DNA of 64,000 nucleotides from an uncultured Gemmatimonadales bacterium (GTDB lineage: Bacteria; Gemmatimonadota; Gemmatimonadetes; Gemmatimonadales; GWC2-71-9): positions 465,302 to 529,301 of the forward strand of contig CAVOGR010000005.1 of assembly GCA_963695555.1 (NCBI GenBank), in the 5' to 3' direction. This document shows, in pieces, positions 4,255 to 64,000 of this stretch. The notes under the pieces were generated by a model. It worked only from the letters and a program-made list of their open reading frames with translations, had not been told where the DNA came from and made no database searches. The position numbers were made by a program, and so were the translations under genes. Position 1 is the first letter of the stretch, and each line of letters opens with the position of its first letter.

Positions 4255-4258
4255 GCGG

Positions 4259-8725: not shown

Positions 8726-8760
8726 CGGGCAGACGCCTCTGGGGATGCGGATGACCTTTG

Positions 8761-8789
8761 AATGTAGGCGCCCGGTCCTGCAGGGTCAA
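8761..8789 (-). promoter_or_regulatory. Sigma70-type promoter of nrdJ
   Basis: Minus strand TTGACC-17 bp-TACATT about 35 bp upstream of the ATG; partial NrdR-box-like CCACAACATATG at 8824-8835. Confidence 0.55.
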
Positions 8790-8866
8790 TCGCGCGACGA
8801 TCTGGACGATGGGTAAAATCCGGCATATGTTGTGGAGCAGGGATCATCAGACAGCAAGCGGTGGAC

Positions 8867-9301: not shown

Positions 9302-9302
9302 G

Positions 9303-9740: not shown

Positions 9741-9803
9741 GGCGGTTGAACAGCGGAGCGGCGGGTGATTTACCGGAAGGCCAGACATCTAGCGAGCAGA
9801 ACC

Positions 9804-10544: not shown

Positions 10545-10549
10545 GCTTC

Positions 10550-11164: not shown

Positions 11165-11337
11165 TCGCCGGGCCTGCCCAGCTCTCCTGGGACAAAAAAT
11201 GCGTTATACCTTGGCTACACGCAGTCGACACTGAACCAACTGCCGCCGCACAAGACCTGACCGGAGCGGTCAAGTGATCTGAACCAGACAGGACCCTTCG
11301 TTGCTCAACCACCAAATCTCAACCACAGGCGCTGACA

Positions 11338-35907: not shown

Positions 35908-36532
35908 TCAGTTCTTGGCGTAGTATTCGACGACAAGGTTCGGTTCCATCATCACCGGGTAGGGCACGTCCGTCGAGGCTCGGCGTGCGCACGAACTCGG
36001 CGCGTCATCTTGGAGTGGTCGACCTCCAGATAGTCCGGCACGTCGCGCTCGGGGCTGCCGACCGACTCGAGCACGAGGGCGATCTGGCGCGACTTGTCGC
36101 GGAGGTCGATGACGTCGCCTTCCTTGACGCGGTAGGAGGCGATGTTCACCCGCTTGCCGTTGACCGTGACATGGCCGTGGTTCACGAACTGGCGGGCGGC
36201 GAAGATGGTGGGCACGAACTTGGCGCGGTAGATCGACCGCGTCGAGCCGGCGCTCCAAGCAGGCCGATAGGTAATTCTGAAGTATCGCCGCGCTGGCGCT
36301 CGGCGTCGCCGTAGATGCGGCGGAACTGCTTTTCGGTCAGATCGCCGTAGTAGCCCTTGAGCTTCTGCTTGGCGCGCAGCTGCGTGCCGTAGTCGGACAT
36401 CTTGCCCTTGCGGCGCTGGCCGTGCTGGCCGGGGCCGTATTCGCGGCGGTTCACCGGGGACTTCGGGCGGCCCCAGATGTTCTCGCCCATGCGGCGGTCG
36501 ATCTTGTATTTCGCGCTCGTACGCTTGGTCAC
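35908..36532 (-). CDS. rpsD: 30S ribosomal protein S4 (frameshifts, probably artefactual)
   Basis: [22 protein letters not shown]...PGQHGQRR...[49 protein letters not shown]. Confidence 0.95.
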
Positions 36533-46635: not shown

Positions 46636-46636
46636 C

Positions 46637-47762
46637 TCAGGCGATCCGCTTGCGCATGTTGCGCGCGGAGAGCGCAAAGAGCACCGCTCCCATCAGCAGC
46701 AGGACCACGATGGCGCGCGCGAACATCGGCCAGATGTCACCGGCGAGGAACACCGTCTGCATGCTCGGGATCAGGTATCCGGCCGGAACGACATAGGTGA
46801 TCCACTGGATGACCCGAGGCATCGAATCGATCTCGAAGAGGAAGCCCGACAGCAGGAACGCCGGCAGGAAGCCCGACATCAGGGCGAGCTGCGAGGCGAG
46901 GAACTGGTTCCTCGTGACAGCGGAGATCAGGATCCCCTGCCCGAGCGCGGGCATCAGGAAGGCGGCGCTGAGCGCATAGAGGGCCACGACGGAGCCGCGG
47001 AACGGCACGGCGAAGACCAGTACCGCCAGCAGCACGCAGATCGTCATCGCGGTGAGACCCAGCAGGAAATACGGAATGATCTTGCCGATCAAGAGCTCGG
47101 CCGCGGTGACAGGCGTCGCCATCACCGCCTCCATCGTGCCGCGCTCCCATTCGCGGGCGATGACCAGCGAGGTCAGCAGCGTGCCGACCAGCGTCATCAC
47201 GATGGCGATCGGAGCCGGGCACCAGGAAGTTGCGGCTGGCCAGTTCGGCGTTGAACCAGAAGCGCGGCTCGGCCTCGATAGGCAGCACCTGCGGCGCGCC
47301 GATCGCGCTGCGCAGGGCGCCGAGGTTGGCGACCACACCCTGGCTGTAGTTCTGCACGAAACTGGCGTTGTTGGGCTCGGTCCCGTCCACGATCACCTGG
47401 ATCTGTGGATTGCGGCCCGCTGCGAAGTCGGCCGCGAAGCGCTCCGGGATGACCACGATGCCGCGAACCGCGCCGCGCACCAGCGCCTCCTCGAACTCGC
47501 GGCGGTCGCGGCCGTAGACCACGTCGAACGAGGGCGAGGCCTGGAAGGCCGAAGCGACCCCCTGCGTGACCGGCGTCATCCGCTCGACGACGACGCCGAT
47601 GCGGGTGCGCGCGGCGTCGAGCGAGACCGCGTAGCCGAAGAGGAACAAGAGCAGCACCGGCAGGACCAGCGCGATGAGGATGCTGCTCGGGTCGCGCAGG
47701 ATCTGCCAGCTCTCCTTGCGGACCAGCGTCGCGAGCCGGCGCAGGCGGCCGGACCCGGTCAT
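46637..47762 (-). CDS. ABC-2 permease (YbhS-like), frameshift near 47215
   Basis: KESWQILRDPS, AREWERGTMEA, LLSGFLFEIDSMP. Confidence 0.88.
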
Positions 47763-49524
47763 GCGGCGGCCTTCACGTCCGCCTCGGAGGCCGCGACGAG
47801 GGCGATGAACGCGTCCTCCATGGTCGGGTCGGGCATCGCGGCGGTGGCCACCCTGGCCTTGAGCTCGTCGGGCGAGCCCAGTGGCGACGAGCGGCCGCGG
47901 TAGATCAGCGCGATCCGGTCGCAGTACTCGGCCTCGTCCATGAAGTGCGTGGTGACCATCACGGTCACGCCCTTCTCGACCAGGCCGTTGATATGGGTCC
48001 AGAACTCGCGGCGGGTGATCGGATCGACGCCCGAGGTCGGCTCGTCGAGAAACAGCACCTCCGGCTCGTGCATGACCGCGCAGGCCAGCGCCAGCCGCTG
48101 CTTGAGGCCCAGCGGCAGGTCCTCGGCCGACATGGCCAGGCGCGGGCGGAAGTCGAAGATCTCGGTCATCATCCCGATGCGCTCGCGCCGCCGCTTGCCC
48201 GACAGACCGTAGGCGCCGGCGAAGAACTCGAGGTTCTGCGCGACGCTGAGATTCCCGTAGAGCGAGAATTTCTGCGCCATGTAGCCGAGGCGGCCGCGGG
48301 CCGCCGCGCCATCGCGGCGCAGGTCGAACCCCGCCACGCGGCCCTCGCCCGAGGTCGGCTTCAAGAGGCCGCACAGCATCTTGAAGGTGGTGGACTTGCC
48401 CGCGCCGTTGGGACCGAGCAGGCCGAAGATCTCGCCCGCGGGGAACGGCGAAGGTGATGTCGTCCGCGGCGGTGAAGTCGCCGAAGCGCTTGGTCAGCCC
48501 GCGCGCCTCGATCACCGGCCTGCCGCCATCGGCCGGCAGGGTGCGCGCGGCCTCGGCCAGCGCCGAGCGCCCCGCCGGGCCGCCGCCGAGCATGTCGACG
48601 AAGGCGTCCTCGAACCGCGGCGCTGCCGGCTGCATCGCCACCCCGGCCCCGGCCCCGTCCGGTATCGCCCGCGCGGGATCGGTGCCCGCCTGCGAGCACC
48701 AGCCGGATCGCATCGCCCTGGATGACGCCGTCGACCACGCCGGCGCGGTCAAGCGCCCGCGCGAGCACCTCGCGCTTGCGCCCCGTTGTGCCGGTAAGCC
48801 GCCAGACCCGGCCCGCGACCCGCGCGGTCAGCTCGGCCGGCGGGCCTGCGAACATCGGCTTGCCCTCGTTGAGCAGGAGCACGCGGTCGCAGCGCTCGGC
48901 CTCGTCGAGATAGGCGGTGGACCAGACGACGCCGATGCCCTCGCGGGCCAGGTCCTCGACCATCTTCCACAGCTCGCGCCGCGAGATCGGATCGACCCCG
49001 ACGCTCGGCTCGTCGAGCAGCAGGAGCCGCGGCTTCTTCAGCAGCGCGCAGGCGAGGCCCAGCTTCTGCTTCATGCCGCCGGAGAGCTTGCCGGCGAGCC
49101 GCGCGGTGAAGCGCCCCAGGTCGGTGAAGGCCAGCAGCTCGTCGTAGACCGCCGGCCGCTCCGCCTTCGGCAGGCCGCGCAGGTCGGCGTAGAGGTCGAG
49201 GTTCTCGCGGATCGTGAGATCCTCGTAGAGGCCGAAGCGCTGCGGCATGTAGCCGATCACCGCCTGGATCGACGCGGCCTCTGTCACCGTGTCGAAGCCG
49301 AGCACGGTCAGCTTTCCCGCCTCAGGCACCAGCAACCCGGTCATCAGCCGGATCAGCGTGGTCTTGCCGGCGCCGTCCGGCCCGACCAGCCCGGTGATCT
49401 CGCCGCCGCGGATCGCCGCGGACACGCCATCGAGTGCCGGCGCCCCCGAACCGAAGCGCTTGGTCACCTCCGACAGGAGCACGATGTCGGGCCTGTCGTC
49501 CGCTCGGGTGGGCGTGTCGGTCAT
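47759..49524 (-). CDS. Tandem ABC ATPase (YbhF-like), frameshifted
   Basis: GPDGAGKTT, LSGGMKQKL, LDEPSVG; second NBD with LPLGLKQRL and LDEPTSG. Confidence 0.88.
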
Positions 49525-49543
49525 GATCCGGCCCGGGTGCCGG

Positions 49544-50566
49544 TCAGCCAGCATCGCCGGCGGCCGGCGGCGCCGGCAGCCTGACCGTCACCGGCATGCC
49601 CTGGCGCAGCCCCTCGTCCGGCGCATCGATGATCACCCGCAGCCGGTAGACGAGATCGGTGCGGAGCTGCGGGGTTTCGACCGACTTCGGCGTGAACTCC
49701 GCGACCGGCGAGATGAAGCCGATCAGGCCACGGTAGGGCCTGTCGGGCGCGCTGTCGGTGACGACCTCGACGATCATGCCGGGATGGATGCGCCCCAGGT
49801 CCGGCTCGGCGATATAGGCGCGCGCCCAGACGCTGTCGGTCAGAGACAGGGCGAAGACCACGTCGCCCGGCGACACGATGGAACCCGGCTCGCGCACCCG
49901 CGACAGCACGATCCCGTCCGAAGGCGCAAGAAGCTCGGTGTCACCGAGCTCGGTCCGGCTGGCGGCGAGGTTGGCCTCGGCGTATTGCAACTCCGCCCGG
50001 GCGGCCTCGATGTCCTCCATCCGGTTCCCTTCCTCCAGCAGCCGCAAGCCTTCCTCCGCCATCTCCGCGGTGGCATGGGCGCGGTCCCGGTTGGCGGTCG
50101 CTTCGTCGAGCGCCGCCTGGGCAACGGTGTCGTTGCCGCGCAGGCTCGCCGCCCGCTGGAAGGCGAGTTCGGCGTTGCGCAGCTCGGCCAGGCGCGCGTC
50201 CCACTCCGCTCTGGAGCGGGCGATCTCGGCCGGGCGCGGGCCGTTCACGAGCTTGTCCAGCGCCGCCCGCCGCGCCCTCACCTGCGCCTCGGCCGCCGCG
50301 ACGGCCTCCCGGTAAGGCGTGGCGTCGAGCCGGGCCATGAGATCGCCGGCCCTGATCACGTCGCCTTCGTCCACCGCCGTCTCGACGATCCGCCCGCCGA
50401 CCCTGAGGCCGAGCTGCACCTCGCGGATGTCGACATTGCCGTAGAGGACGGGCTGGCCGGCACGCACGCCCCCCGGAAGTAAGCGGCCCGGCAAGTCGAA
50501 CCACCAGCCCAGGCCGATACCGATGGCCAGCAGCAGAAGAGCGATCCGAATGACCTTCCCGCGCAT
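49544..50566 (-). CDS. HlyD-family membrane fusion protein (YbhG-like)
   Basis: [39 protein letters not shown]. Confidence 0.9.
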
Positions 50567-50612
50567 GGCTCCGATCCCTCCGGCGATGCGGCGACGGCGT
50601 GGCCGCACGAAT

Positions 50613-50939: not shown

Positions 50940-51175
50940 TGCCCGGTGAGCCAGATCACGACGTTGTCGTGACGGCTGGGCGACATGTCGGGACCGGAGA
51001 CCTTCAGCTTCTGGAAGCCCGCGAGGCTGTCCCGCAGATCGAGCACCTTGTAGGCGACGCAGAGGGCGTTCGACCACTGCGACATGAAGGTGTCGTCGCC
51101 TTTCTGCCTGCCTTTCACGCTCATATAGATGCGTGATTTTGTACCGTCACCGCGGTCGGGACACTCCACCACGGT
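50940..51175 (-). pseudogene. Gene fragment, weakly HopA1-domain-like
   Basis: Coding-like stretch KSRIYMSVK...FQKLKVSGP...RHDNVVIWL with no clear start. Confidence 0.3.
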
Positions 51176-51198
51176 TCGCTGCTGGTGTTGGATCCGCA

Positions 51199-52243
51199 TC
51201 AGTGATCTGCAACCCGGGCAATATGGGCTGCTGCAAACTCGGCTCGAAAACCTGTCGGCGTCTTGCCCGTCCATCGCCTGAATGCCCTGTCGAAGGCGGC
51301 CGGGCCGGAAAGGCCTGCCTGAAGTGCGATTTGCGAGATGGGTAGCGTTGTGTTCGACAGGAGGTCTTCGCTGACGCTCTGGCGCACGTCGTCTTTCATC
51401 TGGCTGAAGGATGTGCCCTTTGCCTGTATGATGCGCTGTACACGACGTGGATGCAGGCCACAGATTGCGGCAAATGAATCAAGAGTCAGATCCTGGTGAG
51501 CGAGGTTATCCGCAAGCACACTGCGAAAATAGGAAAGGGTTGCTTCGCTGGCGCTGGCCCCATCCGGCGCGAATTCCCCTCGTGACGCTTCCACCAGGTC
51601 CCAGTCCAGCGAAAATGGCGCCCAAAGCCATTGCGGCGGAAACGAAATCCGCAAGCCGTTGATCCCGGATGTGATAAGCGCCTGTTTCGGCAGAAACCCC
51701 CGGCGGAAGACCTACGGTGGTCGGCACAGTGACGAGAATATCATTGGGGTCGAAAGTGTCACCGATACCCTGTCTGATCACGGTCACATAGAACGCGACG
51801 CCGACCGCATCCAACTGTCTTGATGGCTTCGACACATTGATCGTGCGCTGAATCTCCAAGCTTGCAACGTCGGGTGAAACGAATACGGAATACCGTACAT
51901 TATCAACTTGCTTCGAAACTTCCACCACCACCCGGGAGAGGAAATCTCCCAAGGTGAGCGCACGGCTCGCCGCCTCCCGGAGCCCGGGCGTCCCCTTCCT
52001 GGCGGTTTCGATCGCCACCGTTGCGCCAAAATACGGGTCGCCGAGAGTTTCGGCCATGTCCTCCAGGGCAGCATAACAGGCGCTCGCCTCAACCAGCATC
52101 GAAGGATCGCTCAGCGCGCCAAGCGGAATCCTGTTGCGGGCAAGCACAGCTTCGACATCGCCGCCGCGCAAGGCGAATGCCTTGGCGAGCGGGAACAAAA
52201 TCAACATTGCTCGGGTGAATTTCGGGGCAGATGGCTTGCTCAT
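51199..52243 (-). CDS. AraC family regulator (frameshift near 51695)
   Basis: N-terminal ligand-binding region (ORF 51506..52243) plus HTH LTLDSFAAICGLHPRRVQR...ISQIALQAGLSGPAAFDRAFRRWTGKTP. Confidence 0.88.
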
Positions 52244-52418
52244 CCGAACTCTTCCCTCAGCTTTCAGGGGTTATCCCCAGAGGACCGGATTGTGCCACCT
52301 CTGGCATGAGATGCAAACACCTGACCTCACGGGCATGGTAGTTTTCAGGCCAGACATGAAGAGAATGAGGCAACGTGCGCGCTGCGCTGATGACCTCTGC
52401 AAGCGCAGGAGCCTGAAA

Positions 52419-53976
52419 ATGCTACGAACAAGGACCTTGGGAGCCGCCACGATGGTGGCTCTGCTGTTGTCGACCACGGCCGTGCTGGCGAATGACATCG
52501 TCATCACCGGCGGGCGGGTGATCGACCCCGAAACTGGTCTCGACGCCATCCGCAACGTCGCCATCGAGGGCGACAAGATTGTGGCGATCAGTGAATTTCC
52601 GCTCGAGGGCGATGTGGTGATCGACGCCAGCGGTCATGTCGTGTCGCCGGGCTTCATCGATATGCATTCCCATGGCCAGAACATCGGCGACTACCGGATG
52701 CAGGTGATCCAGGGCGTCACCACGGCGCTGGAGCTTGAATCCGGTCTTGTGCCTGTCGGCGACTGGTATGACGGTCAGGCCAAGAAGAACCTGCCGATGA
52801 ACTATGGCGCGTCGGCAGGCTGGATCCACAGCCGGATCGCGACCTTCAGCGAAACCGATCCCTTGGCCACGGTGGACTATTTTCAGGATGCGCAGGGCCG
52901 CACCGACTGGAAGATGGACATCGCCAGCCCGGACCAATCCGAGCGCATCATGTCGATGGTCGAACAGGGCCTGAAGGACGGTGCGCTCGGCATCGGCGTC
53001 AACGCCGGCTATGCGCCGGGGTATGGCCATAAGGAGTATTACGCGCTCGCCGAACTGGCCAGGAAATACAACGTCCCGACCTATACCCATGTTCGTTATG
53101 CCAGCAACACCGAGCCGCAAAGCTCGTTCGAGGCGATCCAGGAACTGATCAGCCTCGCCGCCATCACAGGCGCACACATGCATCTATGCCATATCAATTC
53201 GACCTCGCTGTCGGACATCAAGGCCACGATGGCGCTGGTGGAAGAGGCGCAGGCCAAGGGTATCAACATCACGACCGAAGCCTATCCCTTTGGCGCGGCC
53301 AGCACGGTGGTCGGCGCGGCGATGTTCAGCGGCCCGGATTGGCGCGACCGGATGGATTCGACCGCCAACAACTTCCAGCTTGGCGCGGATCGGATGAGCG
53401 AGGACGAGCTGGCCGATTATCAGGCCAACAAGCCCGGCACCTGGATCGTCTGGCATTTCCTGGACGAGGCCGATCCTGAAGCTCTGTCGCTCTTGGACAT
53501 CTCGGTGACCAATCCCGCGACAGCCATCGCCTCGGATTCCGTGTTCTGGTCCTATTTCGACGCGGACGGCAAGATCCAGAACTACGACGGTGACGCGTGG
53601 CCGCTGCCCGATGGTGTCTTCAGCCATCCGCGCTCAACCGCATCCTATACCAAGATCCTCCGCTCTTACGTGCGCGAACGCGGGCTGCTGTCGCTGAACG
53701 AAGCGATCCGCAAGATGTCGCTGCTGCCGGCGCAGACGCTGGAGGAGAGCGTGCCGCAGATGCGCACCAAGGGCCGGCTTCAGGTGGGCATGGACGCGGA
53801 CATCGTTGTCTTCGATCCCGCCACGGTCGCTGACTTGGCCACTTTTGAAAACGCCAATCAACTGACTGTAGGCGTGCAAACCGTGATCGTGAACGGCGGC
53901 ATTCTCGGTGCGTGACGGAGAGTTGGTGCTTGATGCACCCAATGGCAGGGCGATCCGTAATGCGGTCGTGAACTGA
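52419..53976 (+). CDS. Exported D-aminoacylase-like metallo-amidohydrolase 1 (C-terminal frameshift near 53900)
   Basis: Signal peptide ending AVLA; GGRVIDPE, PGFIDMHSH, HVRY, HLCHINS, ASD, HPR, KGRLQVGMDADIVVFDP. Confidence 0.88.
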
Positions 53977-54023
53977 AACTCTTCCAAACGGATAGAAAAT
54001 AACCCGAGAAACAGGAAAACTCC

Positions 54024-55652
54024 ATGAAAGCCAAAACAACCATTTTGACAACAACACTTATTGCCGGGCTGCTGACCGTTTCAGCGGCCTTCGCGCAAGA
54101 CTATGATCTGGTGATCAACAACGGCAGGGTCATCGATCCGGAAACGCTGTTCGACGACATCGCCAATGTCGGCATCACGGACGGGCGCATCGTCGCGATC
54201 AGCGAGGACCCGCTGACGGGTACCGAGACCGTGGATGCCACCGGCCATATCGTGGCGCCGGGCTTCATCGACACCCATTTCCACTTTCAGATGCCGATCG
54301 GCTATTCCCTCGGGCTGCGCGACGGGTTGACCAGCAGCATGGATTTCGAGATGGGCTGTGCGGGATCCTATATGGCGGAATGGTACGAAGCGCGCGCCGG
54401 CGTGACCGGGGCCAACTATGGCTGCGCGGTCAGCCACGAAGCTGCCCGCGCGATGTTCATCGACGGGTCAGACGGCGATTACATGAAAGACGGCCCTTTG
54501 GCCGCTTATGAAACCCGGAAGAAAACGGGCTGGAGCGTGACGCGCCCGACCCTGGAACAGGGCAACGCGATCCTCGAAGAGATTGACAAGGGCCTGAGGC
54601 TGGCGCCCTTGGCGTCGGCAGCACCGTGGGCTACATGCGGGCTGGCGTCTCTTCACGCGAGATGTTCGAGGTGCAGAAGGTCGGGGCACGGTATGGCCGC
54701 GCGACCGGCGCGCATACACGCTATACGCTCGGCACCGACACGTCCGAGGTTAACGGCGCGCAGGAACTCATCGCAAACGCAATATCGCTCGGCGCGCCTG
54801 CGATCGTCCTGCACTACAACAACCCCGGCTGGCGAGTGACACACGAACTGATTTCAGGGTTGCAGGAAAGGGGCTTCAACATCTGGGGTGAAATCTATCC
54901 CTACGCTGCGGGTTCTACCACGATCAATGCGGAGTTTCTGGTGCCGGAGGTCTGGCTCGATCAGTTTGGCAATCGCTATGAAGATACGATGCTGGATCCG
55001 GTGACGAATGAGTATTATACCCTGGAGACCTACAAGGAGACCGTCGCATCCGACCCGACCAGGCCGATCGTCATTTTCAAGATGCCCGAAGAAGACCAGG
55101 CGAAGTGGCTGACGCTGAAGGGCGTGACCATGGGCAGCGATGCGGTTGGTGCCACGCCGTACGACGCCCCGTGGGATTATCCGTTTGACCAGTTGGGCGG
55201 CACCCACCCCCGCACGGCTGGCGCCCGTGGTGCTACGATCCGGCTCGGTCGGGAAAACAACATCCCGATGATGCAGTTGATGTCGATCCTCAGCTACAAC
55301 GCCGCCAAGCATCTGGGCGATACCGGGCTGAAGTTCATGCAAGAGCGCGGCCGCATCCAGGCCGGCATGGTCGCCGATATCGTGGTGTTCGACCCCGAGA
55401 CTCTTCACGGACAATTCGACCTACGAAAAGGGCGCCATCCCGTCGACGGGCATGAAAGCCGTGATCGTCAACGGTCAGGTCACCGTGCGGGACGATGTGG
55501 TGCTTCCTGTTTTCGCCGGTCAGCCGATCCGGTTTGACCCCGAAGACAAGCCGCGCTTCGTGCCGATCTCGGAAGCGGCGTGGAATGCCGAATTCTCGAC
55601 CGGGATGCCTGGTGACTTCACGGGTGCCTTCCCTGTGGACGGTGGCAACTGA
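54024..55652 (+). CDS. Exported D-aminoacylase-like metallo-amidohydrolase 2 (frameshifts near 54600 and 55400)
   Basis: Signal ending AFA-QD; PGFIDTHFH, HTRY, GSD, HPR, RGRIQAGMVADIVVFDP. Confidence 0.88.
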
Positions 55653-55684
55653 TCGTGATCACAGCCAAGCAAGGAGGCTGGACC

Positions 55685-56351
55685 ATGCGGTTTTTGACCT
55701 CCGTCTTCGTGGCGGCCATATTGGCCGCCACTCAAGCATCGGCAGAACCGGAGGCGATCGAGTTCTCCGACTTGGCGGATCCGTTCGCCGTTGCCTTTGA
55801 AGACCCCTACGCAGCCATGGGGGTCGACATGCTGAACGAACTGAAACTGTTGGTTCAGTCGGACGAGAAGCTCGCCGGCACTGATCTGGACGAGGAGACA
55901 CGCACGCGTCTGGAGGCCCGCCGCACCGCGGCGCAGGAAAAGCTCGAGGCGAATGGATCACAAGGTCGATGTGTTGCTGGAGCAGCGCTGGGATGTCGCC
56001 AAGAAGCGGCAGACCGCCCGTATGGCCACCAACCCCATTTTCGATGGGGTTGAGGTTTCGATCTCTGGCTACATCATTCCCGCACCACAGGCCGCGGATG
56101 GCAGCGGGTTCGGCTATCTGGTCCCGCAGGTCGGAATGTGCAGCCACCTTCCGCCGCCACCGCCAAATCAACTCGTGCGGGTCAGACTGCGCGCAGATCA
56201 GCAGGTCGAGTCCCTGTATCTACCGGTTCGGGTGTCGGGGCTGCTGCGCGTCGAGCCAAGCGATGAGACCATATTCATCCTCGACGGGGAGTCGCGCATG
56301 CTGAGCGGCTGGACACTCGAAGCGGACACCGTCGACCGACCGGAAAGTTGA
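55685..56351 (+). CDS. DUF3299 (ZrgD/PA4066-like) exported protein (frameshift near 55950)
   Basis: Signal peptide; IEFSDL; VSISGYIIP; YLVPQVGMCSHLPPPPPNQLV. Confidence 0.82.
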
Positions 56352-56517
56352 GGCAGGAACGGCCATTCCTGCTTCTTTGAACGAAACCGTCAGCAAAGAC
56401 GCCACGCGGCGACGAATCCGCGACGATTGACATACGGCTCAGGACGGAGCGGCAGCGACGGGCGGTCGCCGCTGATCCGGATCACCCGAAACAGATCCTC
56501 GTGGAAGGACCCACCGA

Positions 56518-58146
56518 ATGACGAAACGATTCAACCTTATGGCCAGCACACTCCTCGCTGGTTTCATGGCCGCGGCGCCGGCCTTGGCACAAGACTATGA
56601 CCTCGTGATCAACAACGGCAGGGTCATGGACCCTGAAACCCTGTTTGACGACATCGCCAATGTCGGCATCAAGGACGGTCGCATTGTCGCGATCAGCAAA
56701 GACGCTCTGGAGGGCACCGAGACGGTGGATGCCACCGGCCATATCGTGGCGCCGGGCTTCATCGACACGCACTTCCACTGGCAGGCGCCGCTCGGCTACG
56801 CCATCGGGTTGCGCGACGGGCTGACCAGCAGCATGGATCTCGAACTCGCCTGTCCAGGGACGTTCATCGCAAGCTGGTACGAGGCGCGCGCCGGTGTCAC
56901 CCAGGCGAATTATGGCTGCGCGTCCAGCCACGAGCAGGCACGCCAGATGGTGATGGACGGGAAAATGAGCGACGAAATCTACGAGAGAGGTCCCATGGCC
57001 GTTATGGAGGCCAGAAAGAAAAATGGCTGGAGCCTCGATCGCGCGACCCTCGAGCAGGGCAACGAGATCCTCGAGATCATCGACAAGGGCCTTCAGGACG
57101 GCGCGATCGGCGTCGGCAGCACCGTGGGATACATGCGTGATGGCGTGACGACGCGCGAGATGTTCGAGGTGCAGAAGGTCGCGGCGCGCTATGACCGTTT
57201 GACCACCGCACACACCCGCTTCACGCCTGACAACGACGTCATGGAAAATGTCGGCGCGCAGGAACTCCTCCTCAATGCGGTGGCACTGGGTGCGCCAGCC
57301 ATCGTTCTGCACTTCAACAACCCCGGCTGGCGGTTTACGCAAGAACTGATTTCCCGCCTTCAAGATGCGGGGCACAATGTTTGGGGTGAAATCTATCCCT
57401 ACGCTGCCGGCTCTACCTTTTTGAATGCGGTTTACCTGACTCCGGACCAGTGGGTCGAGAGAATGGGCCACCGCTATGAGGATACCCTGCAGGATCCGAT
57501 CACTGGCGATTTCTATGACCTGGCGAGATACAATGCCGACATGGAAACCGATCCGACCAAGCTGATCGTGCTCTACAAGATGCCGCAGGAAGACGTGCCG
57601 AAATGGCTGACGCTCAAGGGCGTGACCGTGGCCAGCGACTCGGTTGTTGCCGAGCCGATTTTCGGCCCGTGGGATTTCCCGTTGGACCAGCTGGGCGCCA
57701 CCCATCCCCGCACCTCCGGCACCCGTAGTCTCTCATTGCGGTTGGGTCGGGAAAACAACATCCCCATGATGCAGCTGATGTCGATCCTCAGCTACAACGC
57801 GGCCAAGCACCTGGGCGATACGGGCCTGAAGGCGATGCAGGAGCGTGGCCGTATGCAGACCGGGATGGTTGCAGATATCGTGGTTTTCGACCCCGAACTC
57901 GTCACCGACAATTCGACCTATGACAATGGCGCTATCCCGTCGACGGGCTACAAGGCCGTGATCGTCAATGGTCAGGTCACGGTGCGTGACGACGAGCTGC
58001 TTGGTGTTTTTGCCGGCCAGCCGATCCGGTTTGAACCCGAAGACAAGCCGCGCTTCGAGCCGATCTCGGAAGCGGCGTGGAATGCCGAATTCTCGACCGG
58101 GATGCCCGATATTACGCCTGCCTTTCCGGTGAATGGCGGCAACTGA
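56518..58146 (+). CDS. Exported D-aminoacylase-like metallo-amidohydrolase 3 (intact paralog of enzyme 2)
   Basis: Signal ending ALA-QD; PGFIDTHFH, HTRF, ASD, HPR. Confidence 0.92.
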   Translation: MTKRFNLMASTLLAGFMAAAPALAQDYDLVINNGRVMDPETLFDDIANVGIKDGRIVAISKDALEGTETVDATGHIVAPGFIDTHFHWQAPLGYAIGLRDGLTSSMDLELACPGTFIASWYEARAGVTQANYGCASSHEQARQMVMDGKMSDEIYERGPMAVMEARKKNGWSLDRATLEQGNEILEIIDKGLQDGAIGVGSTVGYMRDGVTTREMFEVQKVAARYDRLTTAHTRFTPDNDVMENVGAQELLLNAVALGAPAIVLHFNNPGWRFTQELISRLQDAGHNVWGEIYPYAAGSTFLNAVYLTPDQWVERMGHRYEDTLQDPITGDFYDLARYNADMETDPTKLIVLYKMPQEDVPKWLTLKGVTVASDSVVAEPIFGPWDFPLDQLGATHPRTSGTRSLSLRLGRENNIPMMQLMSILSYNAAKHLGDTGLKAMQERGRMQTGMVADIVVFDPELVTDNSTYDNGAIPSTGYKAVIVNGQVTVRDDELLGVFAGQPIRFEPEDKPRFEPISEAAWNAEFSTGMPDITPAFPVNGGN

Positions 58147-58177
58147 TCGTGACACACCCAGGCAAGGAGGCGGGATC

Positions 58178-58213
58178 ATGCGGTTTTTGATCTCCGTCTT
58201 CTTGGCGGCCATC
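58178..58213 (+). pseudogene. 12-codon stub of a duplicated DUF3299 gene
   Basis: MRFLISVFLAAI versus MRFLTSVFVAAI at 55685, with the same upstream GCAAGGAGGC RBS context. Confidence 0.75.
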
Positions 58214-58309
58214 CGCGCAGGTCTGGCTCGCGCGACGCCGCCCGTTCGGCTTTTTCACCATCGAGCGGGACACTCCCGAAACTCATTTCACAAGAAGGAG
58301 AAACCGAAC

Positions 58310-59310
58310 ATGAAGTATCGTCCTATTATTATTGCCCTCGCGATTTCCGCGGCGACTACCTTCGGCCCGGCATACGGCCAGACAACGGAAGGACAGTCCG
58401 TTGGAGCCGCGATCGAGCGGGTCGCGACCGGGCTTGCCGGACGCATAGGCTTTGCGGCGCAGGAAATCGGCGGCGACGACGTCATCGCGTTCAATGGCGA
58501 TGAGACCTTCGTCATGGCCAGCGCCTACAAGGTTGCGATCGCCACGGCCGTGCTGGATCGCGTGGACAGGGGCGAACTCAGGCTCGACCAACTGGTCGAA
58601 GTCACGCCCGACATGATGGTCGTGGGCGAAACTGCGCTTGCCGAGACATTCGTGCACCCCGGGCTCCAGCTCTCGGTGGCGAACCTGATCGAGGTGATGA
58701 TCACGGAGAGCGATAACACGGCGACCGACGTCTCTATGGGACTGGCAGGCGGACCAGCGGCGGTGACCGAGAATCTGCGCAGGTTAGGGATCAACGATTT
58801 CAGGGTCGATCGGCTGACCGGCGAGATTCTCAGGGATGTCTACGACCTGCCGGGACTGGCCACACCAGAAGTCGTCGCGGAGGCCTACAGGAACAACCCG
58901 GCACTCGTGACGTCAGGCAGTATCCGCAATCCGGACTTCGAGGCGGATCCCGCGCGACCACGCAACGCCCCTTGCGATGTTGCAACTTCTGCTTGCCATC
59001 GACAGTGGCACGGCGATGAGCCCCGAGAGCCGCGACGTTCCTGCTGGGAGTCATGTCGCGCACGCGCACTGGCGATGGCCGTATCAAGGGGCTGCTGCCG
59101 AGGGGAACGCCCGTCGCGCACAAGACCGGAACCACCGGCGGAGTGGCCAACGACGTCGGTTATGTCACGCTGCCCGACGGTCGACGGTTTGCCATCGTCG
59201 TGTTCACGAACAGCAGCGAGACAACCGTGTCGGACAGGGATCGCGCGATTGCCGAGATCGCCCGCTCGCTGTTCGACTACTTCTACATTGGGCAGATGGC
59301 GAAGCAGTAA
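58310..59310 (+). CDS. Class A beta-lactamase-fold serine hydrolase with atypical omega loop (frameshifts near 58950 and 59040)
   Basis: Signal peptide; MASAYK (SxxK), ESDNTATD (SDN), AHKTGT (KTG), NDVG. Confidence 0.88.
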
Positions 59311-59480
59311 ACGGGCAAACGTCTTGGGGGTGCACGCTCTGCCGGTGCGCCTCAACCAACGCAATCACGGACTGGTCGATGACACACAAGACAGACGAGT
59401 CCGGCGCGAGAAGCGATCCTGCACGGCGACGATTGAACTCTTCAAGAAATACCCTTTCCACCGCCAATAGGAGCAACCGA

Positions 59481-60834
59481 ATGCGGAAGATAAGCCCAAA
59501 GAACCTGACCGCGGCGCTTGCCGTCGCCGTGAGTGTCGCCCTGCCGGCGGCCGCTCAAGACGCCTCCGGGCCGATCCTGTTCACGAACGTCAACGTCTTT
59601 GACGGCGTGAACGAAGCCCTGATCGAAAACGCCAATGTCGTGGTGACGGACAACCTGATCACCGCAGTTTCGACCGAACCGCTTGCTGTCGCGGGTGGCA
59701 CGGTGATCGACGGCGGCGGACGGACGATGATGCCGGGCATGATCGACGTGCACTGGCACACCTACTTCGCGAATTTGACGGTGGGACAGCTTCTGAACAC
59801 CTCTGACATGTCCGACATTGCGATTGCCGGATTGCTGGGCAACGAACAGGTGCTGATGCGCGGGTTCACGACCGTCCGCGACATTGGTGGAAACCCGTTC
59901 GCGGTAAAGAAAGCCATCGATGCCGGGAAATTTCCCGGTCCCCGCATGTTGGTGGCCGGACCGCCGCTGGGTCAAACCGGGGGCCACTTTGATCTGTATC
60001 CCTATAATGACGTGCCGCGCCAGCCATCGGACTCGCTGCCTTACCTGGAGCGCAACGGGGTGGTCGCGATTGCGGACGGTGTTCCGGATGTGACGCGCAA
60101 GGCGCGCGAAATCCTGCGTATGGGCGCCCACCACATCAAGATCGCGGGCGGCGGCGGCGTGACCTCGATTTATGATCCGTTGGACGTCACCCAGTACTCT
60201 CTTGAAGAGATGCAGGCGATCGTCGGTGTGGCGGAGAACTGGAACACCTATGTCGCCGCGCACATCTTTACGGACAAGGCCATCCAGAGGGCGATCAAGG
60301 CCGGGGTCAAGACGATCGAACACGGCAATCTCATCATGGAGGAAGAGACCCTCCAGATGATGAAGGACAACGGCGTCTGGCTGAGCGCGCAGCCGCTCAT
60401 CGACGACGAGGACAGGCTGGTGTTCGACAATCCCACGAGCACCGCGAAGTGGATCGAAGCCACCGACGGAACCGGCAGGAATTACGAGGCGGCCAAGGCG
60501 ATGGGCGTCAAGATCGCGTTCGGCACGGACATGTTGTTCGATCCTGCGGCCGCAGCGAAGGCAGGGCAAGATGGTGACCAAGCTGAAGAACTGGTTCACC
60601 CCCTACGAGGCGCTCAAGATGGTGACCTCGGACAACGCCGAGCTGCTGATGCTGAGCGGTCCGCGCCACCCCTATCAGGAAGGCCCGCTCGGCGTGATCG
60701 CGGAAGGCGCCTATGCCGACCTGATCCTGGTCGACGGCAATCCGCTGGAAAATCTCGACCTCGTCGGCGACGCCGAGGCCAACTTCGACCTGATCATGAA
60801 GGACGGCGTCATCTACAAGAACACGCTTCAGTGA
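59481..60834 (+). CDS. Exported Xaa-Pro dipeptidase / carboxypeptidase-like binuclear amidohydrolase (frameshift near 60560)
   Basis: Signal ending PAAA-QD; PGMIDVHWH, GFTTVRDIGG, TGGHFD, HIKIAGGGG, AAH, IEHG, FGTD, GAYADLILVDGNP. Confidence 0.9.
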
Positions 60835-60890
60835 AATCGGCCGCTCGTCGCGAAAGCGCGGCGGGCCGTTCATGGCCGGGAGGCCGATAT

Positions 60891-61577
60891 TTGCAGCCAT
60901 TGCGGATTGAACGGCTTGTCTACCGGTGGCCGGGCGCGGAGCGCAGCACGCTGGGGATTGGCGCGCTGTCTCTGGCGTCCGGCGAGAGCGTGTTCCTGTA
61001 TGGACCGAGCGGCTGCGGGAAATCGACCTTGCTGTCCGCGATCGCAGGAGTGGTCGATGTGCCGAAGGAGGTCATCCGCGTAGCGGATCAGGATATTGGC
61101 GGCCTTCGCGGTGGTGCGCGGGACCGGTTCCGGGTGGATCACGTCGGCATGATCTTCCAGGTATTCAACCTCATTCCGTGGCTGAGCGCGCTCGAGAACG
61201 TCCTTCTGCCCTGCACATTCTCGCAGCGTCGCCGCGCGCGTGCGGGCGAGGATCCTGCGGGGACGGCCCGGCGTCTTCTCGACGAACTGGGTCTGTCCGA
61301 TCCGTCTCTTGCATCGAAGCAGGCCCACGAGCTCAGTGTCGGGCAACAACAACGGGTTGCCGCCGCGCGCGCGTTGATCGGCACGCCCGATCTGATCCTC
61401 GCGGATGAGCCGACCTCGGCCCTGGATGAGGCGGCCAAGACGGCGTTTGTCGATCTGCTGGCGCGGGAATGCGCCGAAGCGGGCACCGCGCTGCTCTTCG
61501 TCAGCCATGACCGCGGCCTGGAGCGTCATTTCGACCGCAGTGTCGACTTCCTCGAACTGAACCGGAGCGCCGCCTGA
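60891..61577 (+). CDS. ABC ATPase (ZrgB/PA4064-like)
   Basis: TTG start after GGGAGG; GPSGCGKS, LSVGQQQRVAAARALIG, LADEPTSALD, FVSHD. Confidence 0.88.
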   Translation: MQPLRIERLVYRWPGAERSTLGIGALSLASGESVFLYGPSGCGKSTLLSAIAGVVDVPKEVIRVADQDIGGLRGGARDRFRVDHVGMIFQVFNLIPWLSALENVLLPCTFSQRRRARAGEDPAGTARRLLDELGLSDPSLASKQAHELSVGQQQRVAAARALIGTPDLILADEPTSALDEAAKTAFVDLLARECAEAGTALLFVSHDRGLERHFDRSVDFLELNRSAA

Positions 61578-62953
61578 TGCCGGGGTTCAGCCTGCGCAGC
61601 CTGTGGAACCGCCGGTTCGTCGCCGGCCTGACCGTGCTGGCCATCAGCCTCAGCGTCGCGCTGATCCTCGGTGTCGAGCGGCTCCGGGACGGCGCGCGCG
61701 ACAGCTTTGCCAACTCCGCGTCTGGGATCGACCTGATCGTGGCGCCGCGCGGCAATTCCGTTCAGATCCTGATGGCAACCGTTTTCGGCGTCGGCGGCAC
61801 CGGAACAGGCATGACATGGGACAGCTTCGAGTGGCTGGAAGATCGGCCCGAGGTGGCCTGGGCAGTCCCGATCCAGATGGGCGACAATCATCGCGGCTAT
61901 CCGGTGATCGGGACGGATGCTTCGTATTTCGAGCATTTCCGGCACTCCGGCGGTCAGCCGCTCTCTCTGGCGGCTGGCACGTTCTATACCGGCGATGGGG
62001 CGGACGCCGCCGTGATCGGGGCCGAAGTCGCGGCGCGGTTCGGCTATGCTCCCGGTGCGGTGATCGTCAACGCCCATGGCTCCGGCGAGGTCTCGTTCGA
62101 CCTCCACGACGACGCGCCGTTCACCATCTCGGGCGTGCTCGCGCCGACCGGCACCGCCGTCGACCGGATGGTCTTCGTCACGCTCGAGGGCTTCGACTCC
62201 CTGCATGCGCAGGAAGACGCGCCGCTGGCCGACCCCCTGGACTCGACCGCCACGCCCGCCGACGGTCATGGTGAGGATGACGCGCACGACGACCATGACG
62301 CGCACGACGACCGTGAAGCGCATGGCGACCATGAAGCGCGCGACGACCACGAAGATCATGGCGACCACGAAGGCACGGAGGTCGGACACGGTCACGAACC
62401 GGACCGGATCAATGCCGTCTATGTTGGGCTGATCGATCGGACGAATGTCCTCGGCCTGCAGCGGGCGGTCAACGAACGTCCCTCCGACGCGTTGAGCGCC
62501 GTCCTCCCGGCGGTCGCGCTCGCCGAGCTCTGGGGGATCACCGGGACGGCTGAACGCGCGATGCGGCTGATGGCGTGGGCCGTGGCTTTGGCAGGAATGA
62601 TCGGCATGGTGGTCATGCTCTCTGCGACCCTCGACACCCGCCGCCGCGAATTCGCGATCCTGCGGTCCGTTGGCGCCACGCCCACCCGTATCTTTGCGCT
62701 GATCGTCACCGAAGCCGCCGTCCTCACCGCGGCGGGACTGGTGCTCGGCCTTGTTCTGCTCACGGTGGCCACGTTCGTGACCGACCCGATCCTGTCCGCC
62801 CGTTTCGGTCTGCGATTGGGATTGAATGTCTTCGGCGCGCGCGAACTGGCCACCCTTTTCGTCATCTTCTGCGCAGGGCTTCTTGCCTCGCTTGTCCCGG
62901 CAGTCCGGGTCTATCGCATGACGCTGGCCGACGGGCTGTCGGTTCGGCTATGA
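61577..62953 (+). CDS. MacB/FtsX-type ABC permease (ZrgC/PA4065-like) with His/Asp-rich loop
   Basis: SLWNRR, SGIDLIVAPRG, AVPIQMGDNHRGYPVIGT, GVLAPTGTAVDR, RRREFAILRSVGA, TLADGL. Confidence 0.9.
   Translation: MPGFSLRSLWNRRFVAGLTVLAISLSVALILGVERLRDGARDSFANSASGIDLIVAPRGNSVQILMATVFGVGGTGTGMTWDSFEWLEDRPEVAWAVPIQMGDNHRGYPVIGTDASYFEHFRHSGGQPLSLAAGTFYTGDGADAAVIGAEVAARFGYAPGAVIVNAHGSGEVSFDLHDDAPFTISGVLAPTGTAVDRMVFVTLEGFDSLHAQEDAPLADPLDSTATPADGHGEDDAHDDHDAHDDREAHGDHEARDDHEDHGDHEGTEVGHGHEPDRINAVYVGLIDRTNVLGLQRAVNERPSDALSAVLPAVALAELWGITGTAERAMRLMAWAVALAGMIGMVVMLSATLDTRRREFAILRSVGATPTRIFALIVTEAAVLTAAGLVLGLVLLTVATFVTDPILSARFGLRLGLNVFGARELATLFVIFCAGLLASLVPAVRVYRMTLADGLSVRL
62261..62398 (+). repeat. Degenerate 18-bp coding repeats giving a His-rich tract
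   Basis: DGHGEDDAHDDHDAHDDREAHGDHEARDDHEDHGDHEGTEVGHGHE (11 His in 46 aa). Confidence 0.85.
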
Positions 62954-62973
62954 CAATTCAAGGGGACTTCTCC

Positions 62974-63630
62974 ATGACCTTGTTCGCTCGTCTCGTCTTG
63001 ATACTCTCGCTTGCCGTTTCTCCGGAGCTGGCACAGGCGGCTGACCCTCGGGACATTTCCTGGGATACGCTCGCGCCTCCGGCCGCCGTGATCGAGAACC
63101 CCTTTGAGGACCTCACCGACGACCAGATGGACACCCTCCGCCAGATCCTGCGGTTCGAGACACGGGCCGAGCGGAGCGACGACGCCGAAGCTGGCGCCGA
63201 GGCGCAAGCGTTACGCGGCCAACTGGCCAAGGACGGCCTCGATGTCGACGGATTGTTCGCCGCGCGTCTGACGATCATGGAGAAACGCGAGGCGGCGGCC
63301 ACCGGGGTGAACGAGGACCTCGTCGGCACGAGTGTCCGCCTGCCTGGATATGTGCTGCCGCTGCAATTCAAGGACCGCAAGGCCGTCGAGTTCCTTCTCG
63401 TGCCGACCGTCGGCGCCTGCGTCCACACCCCGCCGCCCCCCGCCAATCAGGTCGTCCATGTGGTCTATCCCGAGGGAATCGAGGTCAACGGACTCTTCAC
63501 CCCCGTGTGGATCACCGGGACCATGCTCGCGCAGAGTTCGGTTCAGGACGTAGGGTACGTCGACGGACAGGCCCCGGTCTCCGTCAGCTATTCGATGCAG
63601 CCGGTTCTGGTCGAGAAGTATGGCGGGTGA
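62974..63630 (+). CDS. DUF3299 (ZrgD/PA4066-like) exported protein (alternative start 62950)
   Basis: Signal ending AQA; ISWDTL; VRLPGYVLPL; FLLVPTVGACVHTPPPPANQVV; PVWITG. Confidence 0.9.
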   Translation: MTLFARLVLILSLAVSPELAQAADPRDISWDTLAPPAAVIENPFEDLTDDQMDTLRQILRFETRAERSDDAEAGAEAQALRGQLAKDGLDVDGLFAARLTIMEKREAAATGVNEDLVGTSVRLPGYVLPLQFKDRKAVEFLLVPTVGACVHTPPPPANQVVHVVYPEGIEVNGLFTPVWITGTMLAQSSVQDVGYVDGQAPVSVSYSMQPVLVEKYGG

Positions 63631-63819
63631 ACGCGAGCGCTCGGACCCAGATCCTCATTCAAGCATGGCGGGCTATACGTGGTGGCGAAAGCGTTACGTG
63701 CACGAGACCTCGGATCGAGATGGGTCGGATGCTGCCCTCCCAAGGAAGCATCGTGCGGTGCCGGGCCAGTGCGTCCGAAACACCCACTGCCTGAGAGGGT
63801 GTCTTACAACAGCATATAA

Positions 63820-63874
63820 AATCAATTTCTTAAGAGTCGGAGAACGTTAGACCTCAGGCCCGTTCCCTCCGCCA
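63820..63874 (+). mobile_element. Candidate att remnant: IHF consensus plus tRNA-Ser-like 3' end
   Basis: AATCAATTTCTTA (WATCAANNNNTTR) at 63820-63832; CCCTCCGCCA at 63865-63874 without the rest of a tRNA. Confidence 0.5.
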
Positions 63875-64000
63875 CTCGCCCTCTCGAAAGCGTTCTCCCG
63901 AATCCCGGCTGCGGCCGGATTTTTCCGTTGTTTTCGAGGGTTATGCGGGAGGGGCTGAGCACCTCCCTCGGTGCCAGAAGGCTGGGAAGCGGTCTCTCAG

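Follow-up and report, generated by a model that had tools for sequence, protein, structure and literature searches.

In the last 64 kb of a 529-kb contig from an uncultured Gemmatimonadales bacterium (GenBank assembly GCA_963695555.1, contig CAVOGR010000005.1, positions 465,302 to 529,301), we identified a 13-kb island that encodes a battery of exported hydrolases together with an ATP-binding cassette (ABC) transporter and two proteins of the DUF3299 family (PF11736). This 64,000-nucleotide stretch is referred to below as the window, and coordinates are given within it. The hydrolases comprise four amidohydrolases, AH1 to AH4, and a class-A beta-lactamase-fold protein, whereas the two DUF3299 proteins belong to distinct types, termed DUF1 (DUF3299-1) and DUF2 (DUF3299-2). 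The best reading, to which we give an even chance, is that of a mobile AraC-controlled hydrolase island equipped with a DUF3299/ABC metal-handling unit.

In the proposed mechanism, the island, controlled by the AraC-family regulator, would send to the periplasm several amide hydrolases that depend on metal, along with a serine hydrolase of the class-A beta-lactamase fold, and there they would act on N-acyl or D-amino-acid-containing compounds, C-terminal residues, and lactams as likely substrates. Hydrolases exported by Sec would have to be loaded with metal after leaving the cytoplasm. An accessory unit made up of the transporter and both DUF3299 proteins may serve these enzymes, most likely by concentrating zinc (or cobalt or nickel) in the periplasm and handing it to the hydrolases. 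Delivery of the metal to the hydrolases, its identity and direction of transport, and the compounds that the enzymes cleave are inferred from the observations described below.

Association of DUF3299 proteins with exported hydrolases

A scan with AH3, limited to one genome per species, yielded 176 relatives, and the best 70 distinct loci were analyzed; since several of them are cut by contig ends, the counts are lower bounds. The AH2/AH3-type proteins of these 70 loci are 63–92% identical to AH3 and, according to the record titles, come from Alpha- and Gammaproteobacteria, Flavobacteriaceae, Cytophagales, Acidobacteriota, Gemmatimonadales, Planctomycetota, and other taxa. Such identity across phyla implies horizontal spread of the island, which is found in many bacteria of marine and sediment habitats. 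A DUF1-type gene is present in 44/70 loci and is located directly downstream of the AH2/AH3 gene in 41/70. Beta-lactamase-like and AH4-like genes were observed in 46 and 45 loci, respectively, AH1 in 21, and the combination of ABC ATPase, permease, and DUF2 in 17. Synteny with the full window island is seen in isolates, including L017, L023, L045, L073, and L027, among cultured Rhodobacterales and Roseibium aggregatum, and L028, L065, L069, and L079, from distant lineages, show a compact arrangement (AH-DUF1-DUF2-ABC-permease). A table of lineage-specific genes of Vibrio vulnificus (lineage L4) lists in consecutive rows a permease, an ATPase, two DUF3299 proteins, a "D-aminoacylase", "PER-1", and an "N-acyl-D-glutamate deacylase", without comment in the sections of the paper cited here (PMC12777771); with this compact cluster, the island reaches the Vibrionaceae. 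Other common neighbors are MlrC/M81 peptidases, class-C beta-lactamase-fold proteins, further amidohydrolases, and small outer-membrane barrels or porins, with no TonB-dependent receptors among the common neighbor clusters of the loci. This fits a periplasmic degradation battery fed through porins.

The same association is seen from the side of DUF3299. A scan with a DUF3299 alignment gave at least 597 relatives, of which the best 80 loci were kept, and in 51 of these an ABC ATPase and a permease gene stand in front of the DUF3299 gene. This trio is repeatedly preceded by a gene for an amidohydrolase (Amidohydro_1, AH2/AH3-type, or Amidohydro_3) or for an MlrC protein. In Ruegeria, the order is an exported metallo-beta-lactamase (MBL)-fold protein of the Lactamase_B family, HlyD, ABC, permease, and DUF3299 (L127, L131, L132, L134, L136, and L145, at ~5–10.7 kb). 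In Shimia and its relatives, DUF3299 directly precedes the same MBL-fold gene without an ABC pair (L144, L147–L150, and L153, at ~9.6–12 kb), and in three further loci an Amidohydro_1 gene adjoins DUF3299, again without the ABC pair (L157, L159, L160). The partner hydrolases of the DUF3299 modules carry Sec or Tat signals.

As an internal control, hydrolase genes were counted in 2-kb bins around the module: they were found in 14/56, 18/55, 14/53, and 11/32 loci in successive upstream bins, compared with 1/57, 2/55, and 2/52 loci in the bins more than 2 kb downstream. A tree of DUF2-type proteins was built for 70 of the best 80 loci, the ten loci lacking a usable DUF3299 open reading frame (ORF) being left out. 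Of its 70 rows, 33 have a gene for an exported amidohydrolase, MlrC/M81, or MBL-fold protein in the same orientation, at most 9 kb upstream or 1.5 kb downstream; the neighbor is an amidohydrolase or MlrC in 23 rows and an MBL-fold protein in 10. Given the well-supported branches of this quickly built tree (Shimodaira–Hasegawa-like approximate likelihood ratio test, SH-aLRT), each of the two neighbor labels must have changed at least three times.

Exchange of the membrane component and the link to metal

The longer homologs of the DUF3299 proteins are fusions with the NicO domain (PF03824) in 5/5 cases for DUF3299-2 and in 11/15 for DUF3299-1, and the Joint Genome Institute (JGI) names such fusions nickel/cobalt exporter or RcnA. 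Fusion proteins of ~765 residues (P0006–P0018) have the arrangement DUF1-DUF2-NicO and contain an HTLGPGHGK motif, and one of them, P0017, has a His-rich loop between membrane helices. An AH2-type gene with 84–88% identity to that of the window ends ~45 bases before the fusion gene in all three Planctomycetota loci found with a fusion (L169–L171) and likewise in L041. Judged by gene order, the membrane engine is here exchanged for a known kind of metal-ion transporter, with the amidohydrolase and both DUF3299 domains retained. Such a swap fits a metal-handling unit serving the enzyme and is hard to reconcile with product efflux or purely mechanical activation. The loading of exported enzymes by metal exporters is known in principle from copper P-type ATPases; RcnA-type proteins are not known to load periplasmic enzymes.

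The permease points in the same direction, as its periplasmic domain contains a His/Asp-rich loop of ~50 residues. The loop varies in length and sequence, with a 27-base indel relative to the Rhodobacterales isolate locus L026, and a His-rich loop (at least six His in 40 residues) is found in 41 of 61 permease ortholog ORFs. The best NCBIfam matches of the ATPase are DevA, LolD, and FtsE.

Two alternatives for the ABC pair have to be weighed against these observations. Firstly, the pair might act as a MacB-type efflux pump that uses DUF3299 as adaptor and clears the periplasm of hydrolysis products or of toxic substrates such as opened lactams and peptides. The family assignment to MacB speaks for this, as do the presence, in 8 related loci, of an HlyD-type adaptor gene immediately before the ABC genes and the proposal of PA4064/65 of Pseudomonas aeruginosa as an exporter in the cited sections of PMC11481552. 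Nevertheless, Pfam detects no membrane-fusion (HlyD) or outer-membrane factor gene in the window island, and both the replacement by NicO/RcnA and the His-rich loops point to metal ions rather than organic products, so that we regard such efflux as improbable. Secondly, the module might work like FtsEX or LolCDE, ATP-driven movement in the periplasm activating, releasing, or positioning the hydrolases via DUF3299 with no transfer of metal. FtsEX-type systems do control periplasmic hydrolases, the ATPase scores with the FtsE and LolD models, and the 41 loci with DUF1 directly behind AH2/AH3 could be understood in the same way. Yet NicO cannot replace a mechanotransducer, and it takes the place of the ABC pair in loci that retain AH2 and both DUF3299 domains. 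Nor would this reading account for the His-rich loops or for the fact that the Zrg relatives are regulated by zinc. We consider this alternative very improbable.

Relation to the Zrg and PA4063–4066 systems

DUF3299-2 resembles PA4066, known from PDB entry 4hsp (PMC8561739), both in sequence (E 2.6e-19) and in fold, 4hsp being the top Foldseek match (E 2.9e-11) of an AlphaFold2 model with a predicted local distance difference test (pLDDT) score of 85.5. Residues G155, C157, H159, P163, and N166 of DUF3299-2 are invariant. ZrgE of the Vibrio Zrg system is also a DUF3299 protein (PMC9817125), and the operons of ZrgE and PA4066 are repressed by zinc (PMC9817125, PMC11481552). The parts of the Zrg and PA4063–4066 papers cited here describe these DUF3299 proteins as so far without function. 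The earlier note on this DNA had matched the ATPase-permease-DUF3299 arrangement to the Zrg/PA4063–4066 systems. The split MacB-type ABC transporter and the 4hsp-like DUF3299-2 bear this out, whereas the counterpart of ZrgA/PA4063 is missing, and hence the module is not a full Zrg system. The His-rich loop of the permease may stand in for the absent ZrgA.

The Zrg relationship leads to a further alternative, that ABC/DUF3299 is a Zrg-like uptake or scavenging device for the cytoplasm, present on the island because of the raised zinc demand of the enzymes or importing metal freed from chelating amides. It draws on the Vibrio work, in the cited sections of which Zrg is assigned to zinc uptake and ZrgABC supports growth under zinc limitation (PMC9820375, PMC9817125), on the Pfam description of the NicO family, which also contains importers, and on the orientation of the permease loop, which faces the periplasm as in capture devices. 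Against it, no TonB-dependent receptor, Zur/Fur-type regulator, or ZrgA is encoded in the island, the outer-membrane genes of related loci are small barrels or porins, and the MacB fold has no known import path according to the cited part of PMC11481552. Moreover, JGI labels the fused NicO proteins exporters, and, from its topology, the His-rich loop of P0017 is predicted to be cytoplasmic provided that the N-terminal domains are outside. Finally, the tight same-strand placement behind AH2 in four phyla exceeds what a link by shared demand would need. Uptake for the cytoplasm thus appears unlikely to us. As PA4064/65 have been assigned to export and Zrg to uptake, the direction of transport in these systems is contested.

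Several observations weigh against a unit that delivers metal to the hydrolases. No adjacent DUF3299 gene is found in 29 of the 70 amidohydrolase loci, and in four of five such hydrolase genomes (Eudoraea, Seongchinamella, Pseudohalioglobus, and a metagenome-assembled genome (MAG) of Flavobacteriaceae; completeness not given) no DUF3299 was found anywhere. Conversely, 37 of the 70 DUF2-type tree rows have none of the considered hydrolases nearby. The loci are related and the islands often horizontally shared, so the neighborhood counts are not independent. Beyond 4hsp, the fold search with DUF3299-2 returned generic oligonucleotide/oligosaccharide-binding (OB) folds, with no known metallochaperone among the listed matches, and therefore the fold gives no functional lead. 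ZrgA (PF10986) has no match in the genome, which is 87% complete, or among the island ORFs; the 14 control genomes had no match to the Pfam models of either ZrgA or DUF3299 and are hence uninformative as controls. The only regulator gene adjacent to the island is that of AraC. Two Zur-like palindromes matched 0/180 and 1/180 loci, a search that covered these loci but not the window, used a consensus that may not fit these taxa, and was the only one made for zinc regulators. In the cited sections of PMC11481552, PA4066 shows no evident zinc binding, and PA4064/65 are assigned to the export of pyochelin-cobalt; the uptake assignment of Zrg in Vibrio, given above, is a further point of this kind.

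The single match among the 180 loci, in Shimia biformata (L133:7782-7793), is a perfect ATGTTATAACAT palindrome that resembles a Zur box and is located ~60 bases before the ABC gene of an ABC-permease-DUF3299 module that has no hydrolase.

The supply of metal to exported apo-enzymes by the ABC transporter and DUF3299, as put forward in the earlier note, is thus partly supported, a metal role being strengthened by the His-rich loop, the NicO fusions, and the hydrolase neighbors, and the recurrence of the DUF3299/exported amidohydrolase association across genomes and phyla, for which that note had suggested a neighborhood analysis, was observed. An obligate role does not hold, given the loci with no adjacent DUF3299; since four of the five hydrolase genomes lack any DUF3299, its members would be helpers rather than a requirement.

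A more general proposal, which we advance tentatively and consider possible rather than probable, is that DUF3299 proteins, including ZrgE and PA4066, are periplasmic metallochaperones that, together with either a MacB-type ABC transporter (by ATP-driven mechanotransmission) or RcnA/NicO, form a metal-insertion system for Sec-exported metallohydrolases. If true, it would be a periplasmic counterpart of the cytoplasmic insertases driven by nucleoside triphosphates, such as the accessory proteins of urease and hydrogenase, and Zrg-type systems would act on the periplasmic metal pool instead of importing zinc.

The exported hydrolases

In a PDB sequence search, AH1–AH3 show distant similarity, with E-values from 1e-20 to 3e-30, to D-aminoacylase, N-acyl-D-glutamate deacylase, and the OngB deacetylase, the match of AH1 to D-aminoacylase 1m7j having an E-value of 3e-30. 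The AH1 ortholog of L017 passes the NCBIfam model PRK09061 (712 bits at a cut-off of 340), and AH2 and AH3 fall just under it (327–330 bits). Residues H96, H98, C123, H243, H276, and D385 (numbering of AH2 from L017) are invariant in 23/23 AH2/AH3 sequences and belong to motifs that, in the alignment with 1m7j, correspond to its metal-binding and catalytic residues. AH1 has Ser at the position aligned with the Cys ligand of 1m7j.

For AH4, the L026 ortholog (93% identical) was compared with structures. It matches PDB entry 3mkv over its full length (E 1e-68), followed by the prolidases 3feq/3n2c, ochratoxinase 4c5y, and Cc2672 (3mtw), with E-values in this group from 1e-68 to 1e-36. The HxH, K, H, H, and D motifs of the binuclear site in AH4 align with 3mkv. 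With 236.5 bits, the ortholog is under the NCBIfam equivalog cut-off of 500 for the Caulobacter Xaa-Pro dipeptidase. The earlier description of three D-aminoacylase-like and one Xaa-Pro-dipeptidase-like amidohydrolases with HxH/His/Asp ligands agrees with the alignments to 1m7j and 3mkv. Most likely, the enzymes cleave unusual amides or peptides in the periplasm. In the Primorskyibacter island (L017:3966-4697), a Peptidase_M15_3 gene of the VanY-like D-Ala-D-Ala carboxypeptidase family adjoins the AraC gene; this neighbor fits the theme of D-amino-acid peptides.

The L017 ortholog of the beta-lactamase-fold protein passes the NCBIfam class A model bla_class_A NF033103 (223.6 bits at a cut-off of 200) and is below the cut-off of subclass A2 (182 vs. 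320). The SxxK, SDN, and KTG motifs are conserved at 95% or more in 35 orthologs. The omega-loop region is ~40 residues longer, and the stretch that follows a conserved VDR is not conserved among the 35 orthologs. Nor is the position equated with Glu166/Asn170, a correspondence that rests on TEM numbering. The protein may not be an efficient beta-lactamase, and given the longer omega loop and the lack of conservation in the stretch equated with Glu166/Asn170, a different substrate is possible.

Gene content and layout of the island

The Pfam assignments (Table 1) agree with the earlier description of an AraC gene divergent from nine co-oriented genes of the named families. As had also been stated there, no solute-binding protein, importer, or cytoplasmic catabolic gene is present from 51.2 kb to the contig end at 64,000, which is 370 bases past the last gene and delimits all negative statements on gene content. 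The signal peptides claimed for the hydrolases are supported as well: in seven predicted exported proteins, a simple script (not SignalP) finds a basic N-terminus, a hydrophobic core, and an AxA-type site at residues 20–26, and it finds a twin arginine in none of the seven. Cleavage is predicted between MLRTRTLGAATMVALLLSTTAVLA and ND in AH1, SAAFA and QD in AH2, and TQASA and EP in DUF3299-1. The TTG start of the ATPase gene was set by comparison with L026 and L017.

Table 1. Features of the island, positions of frameshifts as assembled, and further coordinates. Positions refer to the window unless a locus is named.
Feature	Position	Strand	Remarks
Low-GC island	51171..64000	none	GC composition and homology to isolate islands; reaches contig end
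AraC-family regulator	51178..52243	minus	Pfam Arabinose_bd N-domain + HTH_18; divergent from the nine plus-strand genes
AH1, exported D-aminoacylase-like amidohydrolase	52419..53976	plus	Pfam Amidohydro_3/1; NCBIfam PRK09061 type; assembled ORF stops at 53915
AH2, exported D-aminoacylase-like amidohydrolase	54024..55652	plus	Pfam Amidohydro_3; AH3 paralog
DUF3299-1 (DUF1 type), exported	55685..56351	plus	Pfam DUF3299 E 1e-19, second piece; helical N-part + DUF3299 barrel; GMCSHLPPPPPNQ motif
AH3, exported D-aminoacylase-like amidohydrolase	56518..58146	plus	Pfam Amidohydro_3; 542 residues, intact
Class-A beta-lactamase-fold protein	58310..59310	plus	Pfam Beta-lactamase2
AH4, exported cog1228-type amidohydrolase (prolidase/carboxypeptidase/ochratoxinase group)	59481..60834	plus	Pfam Amidohydro_1
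ABC ATPase, DevA/LolD/FtsE/MacB type	60891..61577	plus	Pfam ABC_tran; TTG start, intact
MacB-type permease	61577..62953	plus	Pfam MacB_PCD + FtsX; start overlaps ATPase stop
DUF3299-2 (DUF2 type, ZrgE/PA4066-like), exported	62950..63630	plus	Pfam DUF3299 E 9e-34; ATG 62950 or 62974, overlaps permease stop; intact
Frameshift in AraC	51701		+1; C5 run, ~51697-51701
Frameshift in AH1	53901		+1; near C-terminus
Frameshift in AH2	54597		-1
Frameshift in AH2	55398		+1
Frameshift in DUF3299-1	55957		+1
Frameshift in beta-lactamase-like gene	58952		+1
Frameshift in beta-lactamase-like gene	59036		+1
Frameshift in AH4	60559		+1
Split-gene regions in the window	5954-8758, 36003-36532, 23341-24446, 24637-25421, 4253-5079
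DUF1-DUF2-NicO fusion genes	L041:1384-3126; L169-L171 ~7960-10260

Frameshifts and assembly quality

As assembled, the island has eight single-base frameshifts in six of its ten genes, seven of them +1 and one -1 relative to intact orthologs; the reading frames of AH3, the ATPase, the permease, and DUF3299-2 are uninterrupted. The breaks were mapped with intact proteins of the L017 isolate (tblastn) and with the DNA of isolate loci L026 and L045. The AraC gene aligns with its intact L017 ortholog in two frames, 52267–51701 and 51696–51178, and AH2 with that of L017 at 80–88% identity spread over three frames.

Eight frameshifts in 9.4 kb raise the alternative that the island is decaying or foreign, i.e., pseudogenized after transfer or joined to the contig by chimeric misassembly, and has no function in this organism. 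A step in GC (guanine plus cytosine) content, the 92% DNA identity to a Rhodobacterales isolate at the contig end, the absence of any contig shown to bridge the junction near 51,170, and the lack of a match in three of four same-genus genomes speak in its favor. On the other side, the frameshifted genes contain no in-frame stops, their identity to orthologs is 70–89% on both sides of every break, seven of the eight shifts have the same sign, and the same-genus genome G004 holds related pieces at 79–86% DNA identity.

Further, breaks of the same kind affect housekeeping genes on the same contig. Outside the island, Pfam models detect ribonucleotide reductase in three consecutive profile segments and ribosomal protein S4 (rpsD) in two, as well as GCV_T in three and DAO, MazG, and LUD in two pieces each. 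As the organism cannot live with broken rpsD and ribonucleotide reductase, the assembly must contain indel errors in this region. A frame detector based on codon usage (Viterbi algorithm, trained on the long ORFs of the genome itself) found 363 same-strand frame switches without a nearby stop in the 3.57-Mb genome, clustered by region. By the same criterion, the part of the window not belonging to the island (51 kb) contains 18 switches and the 13-kb island 4, a similar density, and the density on the contig of the window is 0.17 per kb.

Contigs of four other public runs (two sediment DNA and two estuary RNA libraries), at least 92% alike and thus from relatives that are not necessarily the source strain, lack one base at 51697, 55399/55403, 55959, 58952, 59037, and 60558/60560, i.e., at six of the eight sites. 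The base is missing at 51697 in run X3 and at 55959 in runs X1 and X3. For 53901, no missing base was seen in these contigs, and at 54597 they have only loose ends, which fit the intact version. Homopolymers as the sole cause were rejected, since not all sites are found within runs of at least four bases, and same-genus DNA synteny was dropped as a frameshift control, its identity of 64–89% over ~40–680 bases (64–71% in the long matches) being too low. All eight frameshifts are very likely indel errors of the assembly and not marks of pseudogenes, which falls short of proof because the comparison contigs stem from relatives. An island that is decayed or wrongly joined therefore has, in our estimate, only a slight chance. 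Any pseudogene call in this genome needs read-level support.

Origin and boundaries of the island

At ~51 kb, the GC content steps from 0.69–0.73 upstream to 0.58–0.67 in the island (0.70 and 0.60, respectively, as single values), the flanking DNA having the high GC content of the host. Homology to the isolate islands begins at 51171–51222. Compared with the Rhodobacterales isolate locus L026, the island is 91.8% identical in DNA over 51222–55719 (4.5 kb) and 86.1% over 56581–63963 (7.4 kb). The comparison with four same-genus genomes mentioned above is part of a tally over 41 genomes, G018 included, and no contig of the four other runs was seen bridging the junction. The AH2-DUF3299-AH3 segment (54024–58146), shared with L017, corresponds in L026 to one amidohydrolase gene (10064–11698) that aligns with both AH2 and AH3; this reflects either a duplication here or a deletion there by recombination between the paralogs.

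Towards the right end, a MAG contig (L107:559) is 98.9% identical to 63247–63803 and diverges from the window past 63803, and a terminator-like hairpin is located at 63905–63918. The right-hand boundary of the island, or a break in the assembly, may lie near 63803–64000.

Just outside the island, a host-GC operon on the minus strand (45532–50587) contains HlyD, an ABC ATPase region, and two ABC-2 permeases, with a TetR gene upstream; apparent frame breaks are seen at ~47210, 47765, 48447, and 48694.

In two estuary RNA libraries, contigs at least 92% alike cover 29/30 and 28/30 bins of the island and derive from many source organisms. Matching 31-mers and contigs at least 92% alike (51100–61000) were also found in many estuary metatranscriptomes (X2, X11, and 11 further ones) and in metagenomes from sediment, soil, and wetland, a hint that the island or related ones are common in these habitats and perhaps expressed, matches in RNA libraries being no demonstration of transcription. 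Shared widely among bacteria of estuaries and sediments, this set of periplasmic hydrolases could play a part in the turnover of D-amino-acid peptides or lactams.

Comparison with known systems

AH1–AH3 belong to the same Amidohydro_3 branch as the D-aminoacylase of Alcaligenes faecalis (1m7j), N-acyl-D-glutamate deacylase (3gip), and OngB (9kb1). AH2 and AH3 keep the HxH/Cys/His/His/Asp pattern of these enzymes, whereas AH1 has Ser for Cys, and only parts of the sequences align. Characterized enzymes of the D-aminoacylase type are known as cytoplasmic; in contrast, AH1–AH3 carry signal peptides. The AH4 ortholog falls into the cog1228 group, which includes the Sgx9260b/c prolidases (3feq/3n2c, 3mkv), the arginine carboxypeptidase Cc2672 (3mtw), and ochratoxinase (4c5y), with full-length alignment and all binuclear motifs, but falls short of the equivalog score of the Caulobacter Xaa-Pro dipeptidase. 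The beta-lactamase-fold protein shares with class A beta-lactamases (A2: PER, VEB, CblA) the match to the class-A model and the SxxK, SDN, and KTG motifs; it differs in the enlarged omega loop, the score below that of A2, and the lack of conservation at the position aligned with Glu166/Asn170.

As for the transporter, the island lacks the HlyD and outer-membrane factor partners of a MacAB-TolC tripartite pump. The RcnA/NicO transporters are linked to it by the Planctomycetota fusion, which places NicO in the gene position of the ABC pair; the window itself has no NicO gene. The closest resemblance is to ZrgABCDE of Vibrio cholerae and V. parahaemolyticus and PA4063–PA4066 of Pseudomonas aeruginosa, which share with the island a split MacB-type ABC transporter followed by an exported DUF3299 protein. 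Both also have a His-rich periplasmic metal-binding sequence, located in the island on the permease. In contrast to these systems, the island lacks ZrgA/PA4063, contains two DUF3299 genes, one of them tied to an amidohydrolase gene, and lies beside an AraC gene and not in a described Zur operon. It is also set in a battery of exported hydrolases, a context not described in the cited sections of the Zrg and PA4063–4066 literature.

While the role of Zrg/PA4063–4066 is contested, the island and its relatives tie DUF3299 pairs to defined exported metalloenzymes and show that a metal-ion transporter of a known type can take the place of the ABC engine, which gives the family a testable job. With respect to known systems, the island is in part a member of the Zrg/PA4064–4066 type, its metal module being of the Zrg kind and recruited by a mobile set of hydrolases that are exported.

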